Shown piece by piece: positions 2,416 to 14,946 of a stretch of DNA of 37,346 nt (its first letter is position 1; each line of letters starts with the position of its first letter). Source of the stretch: Promethearchaeota archaeon (lineage in GTDB: Archaea; Asgardarchaeota; Lokiarchaeia; Sigyniarchaeales; SOKP01); NCBI GenBank assembly GCA_016839745.1, contig JAEOTS010000081.1, forward strand, positions 1 through 37,346, in the 5' to 3' direction. A program made the position numbers and the translations under genes. The notes under the pieces were generated by a model. It saw only the letters and a program-made list of their open reading frames with translations. It was not told where the DNA came from and did not search any database.

Positions 2416-3000
2416 CTATTTACCACGACCTTTTTTCGCTCCTAAACTCGGTCTTGTCTTTTCAGATCCCCATCCTTTCTTATGCAAACCTCTAGCTCTA
2501 TGACCCGCAGAAGTTAATCCCCGAGTAACTCTTCTAGTGTGTTGAGGTTCGCAAATCCAATTAATTTTTGGATCAGATTTGATTACGGGGTGATTTGGGT
2601 CGACCATAATAACTTCGTAATACCAACTCCTTCCGTCGGCATATACTTTATAGCTATTCAATACCTCTAAATTTGGGTATTTCCGTTGTACGCGTTCTTC
2701 TGCAACCCATTGTAAATTTTTACCGGTTGTGTACTTAGAGACCCCCATAGCTCTGGGTTTTCTTCCTCGTTTCGGTCGGACTTTATGCATTCCGCCTTTT
2801 CTGATTCTGGCTCGAACGATGACGTACCCTTGTTTAGCTTTATAACCAAGGGTTCGTGCTCTATGTAATTTAGTTGGTCTTTCGACGCGTTCAATCGATT
2901 TTCCTTTTCGATATTCAATTCCTCTTTCCCAGTGAGTTGTTTTGTAACCAGTTTCGTGTTTTTCGAATGTGTCCTTCACATGACTATATCCAGACTTCAT
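2416..3000 (-). CDS. rpl15e: 50S ribosomal protein L15e
   Basis: [41 protein letters not shown] and RGLTSAG are diagnostic eL15 motifs. Confidence 0.97.
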
Positions 3001-3155: not shown

Positions 3156-3644
3156 ATGAAAATGGAAGAACAAAAGAAATCAGATTTAAAGAAGAATTTG
3201 ATTGTTACCGACGAGGATGGTTTGAAAATCGCATATGATAAAATGGAACTTAAGCGCCAATTTCCTCAATTAATGCGGGAATTATCTGAAAAGAAGAAAT
3301 CTCTAAAGATAAAGGGTGTTGATTATGAAATTGAACAAGCAAAAGAAGAACTTAAAGCAAGTCAAGATACTAATTATTGCGAAGACTTACTTAATCCCGG
3401 TGCAATTGATTTTATTAGGCGGTGTACAGATAAGGAAGATGCTTTAGAGATTTTAGATTATCTTATAGAAAGAAATGAGTTAACCGTCCAAGATTATAAC
3501 GCGTTAAAAAATCGTATAAAAGAAGAGGGTGGGTTAGAGAAGTTAATAACAGAATGCGGCGGATTAAAAACACCGGGATATTACGAAAGGAAGTTTCCAA
3601 GGAAAATAAATATATTGAATAATAAAAATGAGAATTTAGATTGA
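3156..3644 (+). CDS. DUF2095 family conserved archaeal protein
   Basis: NPGAIDFIRRCTDKEDALEILDYLIERNEL and C-terminal KTPGYY match the family pattern. Confidence 0.75.
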   Translation: MKMEEQKKSDLKKNLIVTDEDGLKIAYDKMELKRQFPQLMRELSEKKKSLKIKGVDYEIEQAKEELKASQDTNYCEDLLNPGAIDFIRRCTDKEDALEILDYLIERNELTVQDYNALKNRIKEEGGLEKLITECGGLKTPGYYERKFPRKINILNNKNENLD

Positions 3645-3719
3645 TGATGAACTTATGACAATTGAAAGAGCTATTGCTCATAGCGATGACGTTGTCGCCC
3701 CAAACTGAAATTCAAATTC
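3632..3719 (+). ncRNA. Box C/D 2'-O-methylation guide sRNA; predicted D-guide target is the 23S P-loop G2251 equivalent
   Basis: C box ATGATGA 3644-3650, D' TTGA 3662-3665, C' GCGATGA 3683-3689, D box CTGA 3705-3708. Terminal stem GAATTT/AAATTC. D-guide TGTCGCCCCA pairs with the conserved UGGGGCGGCA. Overlaps the upstream stop codon. Confidence 0.8.
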
Positions 3720-3722
3720 GAT

Positions 3723-3977
3723 TTAAGAGTTGGATTCGATTTTTTCCTTAAAACTTAAACCTTTATTAGTTAAGAAATAGCCATCATTTTTTTTTATAAT
3801 GAGTTTTAACTCCAATAGTACCGGAACTCTTCCTTTAATACATGCCATGGGAAGTCCCGAGAACATCTTCATGGTTTCAAAATCTTTTGCTCCCTTATCA
3901 ATAGCAAAAAAAATATCCACGCCCATGTTTCCAAGTAAACATTTTAGTTCTTGAAGGGATTCGTCTTCTTTGCTCAT
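3723..3977 (-). CDS. Small winged helix-turn-helix protein
   Basis: 84 aa; helix-turn-helix followed by a typical wing ending LIIKKNDGYFLTNKGLSF; 6 bp downstream of the longin-domain gene. Confidence 0.65.
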   Translation of the reverse strand: MSKEDESLQELKCLLGNMGVDIFFAIDKGAKDFETMKMFSGLPMACIKGRVPVLLELKLIIKKNDGYFLTNKGLSFKEKIESNS

Positions 3978-14874: not shown

Positions 14875-14946
14875 TGGACCTGACGGGAATTGAACCCGTG
14901 ACCTCTTGATTGCGAACCAAGCGATCTGCTACTGATCTACAGGCCC
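14875..14946 (-). tRNA. tRNA-Ala (anticodon CGC), no intron, CCA not encoded
   Basis: Reverse complement GGGCCTG TA GATC AGTAGCA GATC G CTTGG TTCGCAA TCAAG AGGTC ACGGG TTCAATT CCCGT CAGGTCC A; cloverleaf with the G3:U70 Ala determinant. Confidence 0.95.

Follow-up and report, generated by a model that had tools for sequence, protein, structure and literature searches.

The window analyzed here is a 37,346-nucleotide (nt) stretch of contig JAEOTS010000081.1 from a Lokiarchaeia metagenome-assembled genome (MAG), and at positions 3632-3719 of its forward strand it carries an 88-nt box C/D small RNA (sRNA) whose boxes and closing stem can be read directly from the sequence. The element is a real, conserved, single-copy box C/D sRNA gene. 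We consider it, with good confidence, to be a dual guide, in which the D arm would serve methylation of G2251 (Escherichia coli numbering) in the P-loop of 23S ribosomal RNA (rRNA) and the D' arm would pair with helix 89. The source MAG (3.53 Mb in 192 contigs, 32% G+C) is 89% complete, and neither large-subunit (LSU) nor small-subunit (SSU) rRNA is present in its assembly, so every target pairing given below is read from the rRNA of relatives.

Conservation among relatives, and not the presence of motifs in one sequence, is what places the element beyond chance. We refer to the family of the source genome as f1, to its Prometheoarchaeum-like sister family as f2, and to genera by g-numbers. 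A BLAST search with a 231-nt query around the locus detected it in 21 of the 24 same-genus genomes, and in several relatives the match shrinks to the sRNA alone (query 74-159, corresponding to window 3633-3718). The pattern CGCCCCANNCTGA retrieves orthologues throughout the order, including the compact forms of f2; exact matches to the pattern outside the order are mostly coding or chance, and a second exact match within the source genome sits, by eye, in a probable elongation factor 2 gene. An alignment of 39 orthologues is invariant at box C, the GAC.A core of antisense element 1, the A.GA of box C', the GTCGCCCCA of antisense element 2, and box D, noting that these sequences had been gathered with the GTCGCCCCA pattern. 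The flanking genes change outside the genus, and the element is thus an independent gene rather than the tail of a neighboring one.

The closing stem covaries across the order. All six of the tested pairs change on both sides among the 39 orthologues, with a covariation score of 0.56, as against 0.175 for shuffled alignments (0 of 500 reach 0.56) and 0.04 to 0.09 for a slid partner strand. The two stem pairs adjoining boxes C and D are paired in every aligned sequence, and at least seven distinct stem sequences occur across genera, among them AATTTAGATT/AATTTAAATT, GGAACGTT/AATGTTTC, GAGAAGAAA/TTTTTTCTC, GACA/TGTC, GGC/GCC, and CCGC/GCGG. The internal hairpin is kept within the family but covaries little (77% of cells paired; one pair changed on both sides). 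When a covariance model was derived from the alignment and used for searching, it recovered 23 of 25 f1 genomes and both f2 genomes, each with a single copy scoring 60 to 94 bits, and gave only two marginal matches from 123 genomes outside the order.

An earlier reading of this DNA made without database searches (the sequence-only reading) had proposed an unannotated box C/D sRNA at these positions and had looked to its boxes being conserved in relatives. Both proposals hold: the boxes, guides, and stem are conserved and covary across the whole order, and no Rfam family matches the locus at its gathering threshold. Under permissive settings, all Rfam matches at the locus are subthreshold box C/D families, the best of which is RF01177 (snR67) at 24.5 bits versus a gathering score of 55 (E = 0.0035 in the 231-nt search); the Rfam search that had been suggested points to the same yeast RNA that the sequence-only reading had aptly chosen for comparison, and the two are identical over GUUGUCGCCCCAA.

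The D arm most likely functions in 2'-O-methylation of G2251. This guanosine of the P-loop pairs with C75 of the P-site tRNA, and it is methylated by RlmB in bacteria and through the U31 and snR67 small nucleolar RNAs (snoRNAs) in eukaryotes. Counting guide positions from box D, with A3704 as position 1, positions 3 to 11 (3702 down to 3694) pair with U2249-C2257 of the genus 23S rRNA over 9 bp, consisting of eight Watson-Crick pairs and a U:G pair at G2256, and C3700 at position 5 faces G2251. A tenth pair is impossible in the genus, in which nucleotide 2258 is a U and the P-loop helix reads UGGGGCGGCU, not ...GGCA; of the duplex originally put forward, 10 bp with one G:U, the G:U is retained and the length is reduced to 9 bp. 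These pairings come from three same-genus 23S genes that read GGCAGUUUGGCUGGGGCGGCUC / GGCUGGGGCGGCU at the P-loop, with numbering verified on E. coli rrlH, where 2246-2258 is GACUGGGGCGGUC and G2251 is the second G of the run. All three genes are complementary to the guide, and they put the fifth base upstream of box D opposite G2251, as the sequence-only reading had predicted when it made complementarity to the P-loop one of its refuting tests. The helix 80 of the source organism would be expected to read UGGGGCGGC, and its helix 89, UUGUCACGAGU.

Variation among lineages follows this pairing. The invariant block of the guide in the 39-sequence alignment is exactly positions 3 to 11. In f2, the helix 80 pair is flipped (CGGUGGGGCGCCA), and the C at guide position 2 pairs with G2248, lengthening the duplex, whereas f1 guides have an A (or a G in genus g18) at position 2, opposite C2248. 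The guides of g13, g15, and g16 that were found by the covariance model contain C-to-U changes that keep the pairing through G:U. We assign the D arm to the P-loop because of this invariant block, the change at position 2 in f2, the C-to-U changes that keep wobble pairing, and the standing of the site as a known target.

Three further observations touch the P-loop. One same-genus MAG contains a bacterial-type 16S-23S operon (locus L008, contig C263 of genome G015) with a P-loop helix of GACUGGGGCGGUC and a low archaeal LSU score, and this operon is probably a binning contaminant. The linker and hairpin of the sRNA (3666-3684) can pair, at -16.8 kcal/mol, with a 23S segment immediately 5' of the P-loop (GUGGGCAGUUUGGC), their top site in the LSU; this pairing is no better than background, and the compact f2 sRNAs are without the segment. 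Locus L143 in genome G145, which belongs to another Asgard family, has a candidate C/D arm, UUGAUGA-GUGGUGGCGCCCCACG-CUGA, whose guide, GGCGCCCCAC, would be perfectly complementary to a helix 80 of the CC type, the G at guide position 10 included; the 23S gene of G145 is not assembled.

Helix 89 is the partner of the D' arm, which pairs with its 5' strand; this assignment is well supported by comparison across lineages. Allowing one mismatch, the best ungapped 23S partner of the D' guide is UUGUCACGAGU in all three LSU genes of the genus; it aligns with E. coli 2457-2467, on the 5' strand of helix 89 and about 210 nt downstream of the P-loop, and, like the P-loop, this segment lies at the peptidyl-transferase center. 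Within the genus, 10 of 11 positions are paired, one of them as G:U, and there is an A.C mismatch at guide position 7. The guides of g13 and g15 (ACUUGUGACAA) pair at 11 of 11 positions with the UUGUCACGAGU of the family, and a g16 guide sharing the UUGUGACAA core forms nine contiguous pairs with helix 89. Where the target differs, so does the guide: in f2 (g2 and g8), the target UUGUCGCAGGC is matched by the guide UCCUAUGACAA, with the A-U at position 9 becoming G-C; in g9, a compensatory GGG pairs with CCC; and in f3, with target UCGUCGCGGGC and guide ...GUCGACGAC, the guide compensates for U2458C by changing from A to G. When five guide types were combined with five target types, the cognate assignment came out first among the 120 permutations, its summed duplex energy being the lowest (-64.5 kcal/mol versus a permutation mean of -49.1 kcal/mol).

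A D' target in nearby 23S rRNA had been anticipated by the sequence-only reading, and helix 89 bears this out; the particular target that it predicted, UUGUCAUAAG, is absent from the 23S and 16S rRNA of the genus, and the methylated nucleotide would be either C2461 or U2460. Using UUGA (3662-3665) as box D' would place C2461 at the fifth position. Across genera, it is the NNGA just before the hairpin that aligns (CUGA in g14 and AAGA, at 3666-3669, here), and this NNGA mostly lies one nucleotide after GACAA, which places U2460 at the fifth position. The TTGA position varies within the genus (TTGA, TCGA, TTGT, TAGA, GAGA, AAGA, ATGG, and GTGG) and is absent from one subgroup, while the GA at 3668-3669 is nearly invariant; in g12a, g13, and g15, no GA stands in a register that could be used. 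Accordingly, of the complete C-D'-C'-D layout with terminal stem that was first described, boxes C, C', and D and the stem stand, and D' is weak, its TTGA being unconserved even in the genus. As judged from these registers, the D' arm may methylate U2460 or C2461 or may merely tether helix 89.

Other targets for the D' guide were considered and set aside. Ten exact occurrences of UUGUCAUAAG elsewhere in the genome all lie in ordinary sequence; one of these falls on contig C17 in a hairpin whose TGTCATAAG resembles an anticodon loop, but ARAGORN does not call it a tRNA. C34 of tRNA-Met(CAU), for which there is a Haloferax precedent, was considered and rejected. No tRNA gives more than 6 to 7 bp to either guide, and the best match falls in the intron of a tRNA-Thr-like gene. 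Two adjacent intron-bearing tRNA genes lie on contig C167 of the source genome (about 2090-2340): a tRNA-Thr(GGU)-like gene has two introns, at the canonical 37/38 site and in the region of the D-loop, and a tRNA-Met(CAU) gene has a 41-nt intron that ARAGORN places at 34/35. In two other genomes (locus L085 in G089 and L159 in G194), the 23S sequence ceases to be conserved within the loop region of helix 89 and passes into unrelated AT-rich sequence, which suggests an rRNA intron or insertion.

Several results weigh against a dual guide for G2251 and helix 89. The rRNA of the host is itself unassembled, leaving the target pairing to be taken only from relatives, and the spacers of 11 and 15 nt depart from the archaeal 12. 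Against the 23S and 16S rRNA of the genus (about 4.9 kb), 372 of 1,000 shuffled D guides match equally well or better, so that complementarity in a single genome is not significant; the corresponding figure for the D' guide, 167 of 1,000, is not significant alone. Both guides have comparable duplex energies at other rRNA sites, and ranking by energy singles out neither target. The U at position 10 of the D guide forms a wobble here and a mismatch in f2, where a site in 16S rRNA would pair perfectly. On the D' side, the A.C mismatch is only two positions from the presumed target nucleotide, and the box is degenerate and its register ambiguous. Since single-genome complementarity falls short of significance, we base the target calls on conservation and covariation.

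The most substantial alternative concerns the D' arm, which might be no methylation guide at all and might instead pair with helix 89 as a tether or chaperone that joins helices 80 and 89 or stimulates methylation of G2251, resembling the extra base pairing known for some eukaryotic snoRNAs. We regard this as a serious possibility, though short of probable. Antisense element 1 is conserved far better than any D' box, which is variable or missing within the genus and without a usable-register GA in g12a, g13, and g15; the genus tolerates the mismatch at guide position 7; and the spacing of the box shifts by one nucleotide between lineages, bringing different nucleotides to the fifth position. 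However, a good NNGA is retained at one nucleotide from GACAA in many lineages, the box of g14 is a canonical CUGA, and in Sac-sR110 of Sulfolobus (see below), the antisense element to helix 89 stands before a canonical box D. For the D arm, it is improbable that the real or an extra target is helix 33 of 16S rRNA (ACC-GGGG-C/A-GACAGCAG; approximately E. coli 985-997). The f2 guide UGUCGCCCC forms 9 to 12 contiguous Watson-Crick pairs with the 16S GGGGCGACAGCA (-21 to -25.5 kcal/mol), which is better than the f2 P-loop duplex; the U at guide position 10 pairs with an A at this site, and such pairing could account for the retention of that U and of GU at positions 11 and 12. Throughout f1, including the genus, however, the 16S site is GGGGAGACA, which opposes a G.A mismatch to guide position 8 with no compensation in the guide, and both the invariant A at position 3 and the f2 C at position 2 pair with the P-loop and not with the 16S site; nor do we know of methylation at this helix 33 position in other organisms. 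The f2 16S genes themselves (L039 and L120-L124) contain, about 950 nt in, a helix 33 of ACCGGGGGCGACAGCAG that is perfectly complementary to the D guide over 9 to 12 bp. From this complementarity, helix 33 may be a second target in f2, and the P-loop remains the better-supported target for the sRNA of this window.

Less probable still is a reading in which G2251 is methylated by an RlmB/Pet56-like SPOUT enzyme, or not at all, and the sRNA serves a different RNA, for example a tRNA or mRNA. The single-genome complementarity is not significant, and an assembly that is 89% complete could be missing such an enzyme; yet the sole SpoU-family gene in the source genome is TrmJ-like (39.9 bits on the RlmB model versus a cutoff of 160), tRNAs offer at most 6 to 7 bp to either guide, where the genome has an exact complement of a guide elsewhere, it falls in unremarkable coding or AT-rich DNA, and the two 23S sites agree with both the invariant window of the guide and the covariation. 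We found no RlmB-like enzyme in this 89%-complete assembly, from which one could be absent, and by this comparison of gene content, a protein-only route to G2251 methylation looks unlikely. Hardly credible is that there is no RNA gene here and that the locus is the 3' coding end of the DUF2095 gene, a terminator, or some other signal that acts at the DNA level between convergent genes. The first 13 nt do lie within the DUF2095 open reading frame (ORF), and the folding energy of the whole element is ordinary (z = -0.79), as is normal for C/D RNAs, whose guides need to stay single-stranded; but the element recurs with other neighbors in other genera, its stem covaries, and conservation falls in blocks that coincide exactly with the C/D box motifs and both antisense elements.

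The dual-guide reading, in which the D arm addresses G2251, also accords with the protein genes of the host. The nop5 and fibrillarin genes are adjacent on contig C160, and the genome has two genes of the L7Ae family. The closing stem and boxes C and D would form a kink-turn, and, given the genes present, L7Ae, Nop5, and fibrillarin could assemble on it and on the C'/D' region. Base pairing of the D arm (3694-3702) with U2249-C2257 of 23S rRNA would then put the ribose of G2251 at the fifth position for 2'-O-methylation, and the D' arm, base-paired to helix 89 (5' strand), would either guide a second methylation or merely hold the two rRNA segments during folding. With regard to expression, weak support comes from two metatranscriptomic libraries, in which contigs of relatives extend over the sRNA: one is 239 nt long and spans 3575-3803, and the other runs on into the relative's version of the internal hairpin. 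Neither transcription nor its strand, nor a small RNA with its ends, can be read from such contigs, which may stem from carried-over DNA, and stretches lacking coverage carry no information.

The features of the element are listed in the table below. Of the 11 positions in the closing stem, nine are Watson-Crick pairs, one is G:U, and one is A.C. The sequence-only reading had the sRNA merely filling an intergenic gap, which proved incorrect: its nucleotides 1 to 13 overlap the 3' end of the DUF2095 ORF (3156-3644; stop codon TGA at 3642-3644), such that the 5' strand of the stem shares the last codons and part of the stop codon with this ORF. A small winged-helix ORF on the opposite strand ends at 3723, and rpL15e lies at 2416-3000. 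The spacers measure 11 nt from C to UUGA and 15 nt from C' to D, and the D'-C' linker is 17 nt with a 4-bp hairpin, which, like the total of 88 nt, departs from the compact archaeal norm (about 50 to 60 nt, with spacers of 12 ± 1 nt and an unstructured linker of 3 to 9 nt), a typical form that does not define the class. The sRNAs of sister family f2 are more compact, with 62 to 66 nt between the stems, yet their D spacer is also 15 nt. Elsewhere in the window, a tRNA gene at 14875-14946 on the minus strand (66.5 bits) is the sole match to Rfam at a gathering threshold; ARAGORN with an intron search gave no tRNA on the contig.

Table. Sequence elements of the box C/D sRNA, in window coordinates
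Feature	Positions	Strand	Remarks
Closing (terminal) stem, 5' strand, GAATTTAGATT	3632-3642	+	pairs with 3709-3719
Kink-turn bulge G	3643	+	read directly
Box C, ATGATGA (AUGAUGA)	3644-3650	+	ATGATG invariant in 39/39 aligned orthologues
Antisense element 1 (D' guide), ACTTATGACAA (RNA ACUUAUGACAA)	3651-3661	+	pairs with 5' strand of 23S helix 89
D'-like candidate 1, TTGA (UUGA)	3662-3665	+	genus-specific, variable
D'-like candidate 2, AAGA	3666-3669	+	aligns with NNGA/CUGA of other genera
Internal hairpin, GAGC-TATT-GCTC (RNA GAGC-UAUU-GCUC)	3668-3679	+	between D' and C'; family-conserved
Box C', GCGATGA (GCGAUGA)	3683-3689	+	A.GA invariant, U nearly so, across aligned orthologues
Antisense element 2 (D guide), CGTTGTCGCCCCAAA (RNA CGUUGUCGCCCCAAA)	3690-3704	+	core GUCGCCCCA at 3694-3702, guide positions 11-3
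Box D, CTGA (CUGA)	3705-3708	+	invariant across aligned orthologues
Closing stem, 3' strand, AATTCAAATTC	3709-3719	+	pairs with 3632-3642

Gm2251 is among the very few ribose methylations present in all three domains, and it lies where the CCA terminus of P-site tRNA is held by the ribosome. Judging from the conserved guide, Loki-type Asgard archaea very probably install it by means of an RNA. Asgard archaea are relatives of the eukaryotic ancestor, and a guide that is nearly letter-identical to that of yeast snR67 offers one data point on the age of RNA-guided modification at the peptidyl-transferase center, in this case by an RNA that is also linked to helix 89. No new mechanism is involved, and archaeal guides for G2251 were already known; what is added is the covariation with helix 89, a caution regarding box D', a possible second target in 16S rRNA, and a covariance model for an RNA that lies below every Rfam gathering threshold.

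By the features tested, the element fits the class of box C/D guide RNAs in all but a clean D' box. Its closest counterpart in layout is Sac-sR110 of Sulfolobus acidocaldarius, a C/D sRNA identified by RNA-seq and listed without a predicted target (Dennis et al. 2015, PMC4644070, additional file 1). Sac-sR110 is likewise a dual guide, with antisense elements to both of these 23S sites: CGCCGCUCCAGU complements the S. acidocaldarius P-loop CUGGGGCGGC with G2251 at position 5, as checked on the 23S row of that species, and CAACGCGACGAG complements a helix 89 5' strand like CUCGUCGCG, where U2460 falls at position 5, for which the rows are those of Pyrobaculum and Thermoproteus only. From these complementarities, it appears to share both targets with the Asgard sRNA. 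The arms are swapped, however, with the P-loop guide before D' and the helix 89 guide before D, and Sac-sR110 is compact (about 56 nt, with spacers of 12 to 13 nt) and without the internal hairpin. There is no similarity outside the guides and boxes; what is shared is the two-target layout, which does not imply common descent.

Other archaeal guides for G2251 belong to the same class of ribonucleoprotein (RNP) and share both the target nucleotide and the fifth-nucleotide rule. In three of seven archaeal species, box C/D sRNAs have been predicted to methylate G2520 of the alignment, which corresponds to E. coli G2251 (PMC4644070), and Gm1950 of Haloarcula marismortui has been attributed to fibrillarin and an sRNA (PMC11542601). 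These cases come from thermophilic or halophilic lineages, not from Asgard archaea, and the second arms of the G2520 guides have other nearby partners (alignment U2544 and G2490), not helix 89 (PMC4644070).

In eukaryotes, the clan comprising U31/SNORD31, snR67, and snoR35 (Rfam CL00053) acts on the same nucleotide by the same mechanism. We take the sites of its members to be yeast Gm2619, human Gm4166/4196, and Arabidopsis Gm2610/2620, the human and Arabidopsis numbering varying by source. Over GUUGUCGCCCCAA, the Asgard guide does not differ from the consensus of snR67, which also has the U opposite G2256, and the guide of the nematode snoRNA ceN111 shares a UCGCCCC core with the Asgard D guide. 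The sRNA is nevertheless not a member of the snR67 family, the model for which scores 24.5 bits here and 13.2 bits for the f2 orthologue versus a gathering score of 55; moreover, the shared stretch precedes D' in snR67 and D in the Asgard sRNA, and the other guide of snR67 targets Um2724, not helix 89. RlmB and mitochondrial Pet56/MRM1 (SPOUT) modify the same nucleotide, presumably in the same P-site role, but they are protein-only enzymes of which we found no orthologue in the source genome. The likeness to the eukaryotic RNAs is limited to the boxes and to a guide dictated by an invariant target, and convergence is therefore possible (compare PMC3511168). That the Asgard sRNA, Sac-sR110, and the U31/snR67/snoR35 clan form one vertically inherited guide lineage seems doubtful on present sequence comparisons; were it so, the U opposite G2256 that is shared with snR67 would be inherited, rather than a product of convergence on an invariant target.

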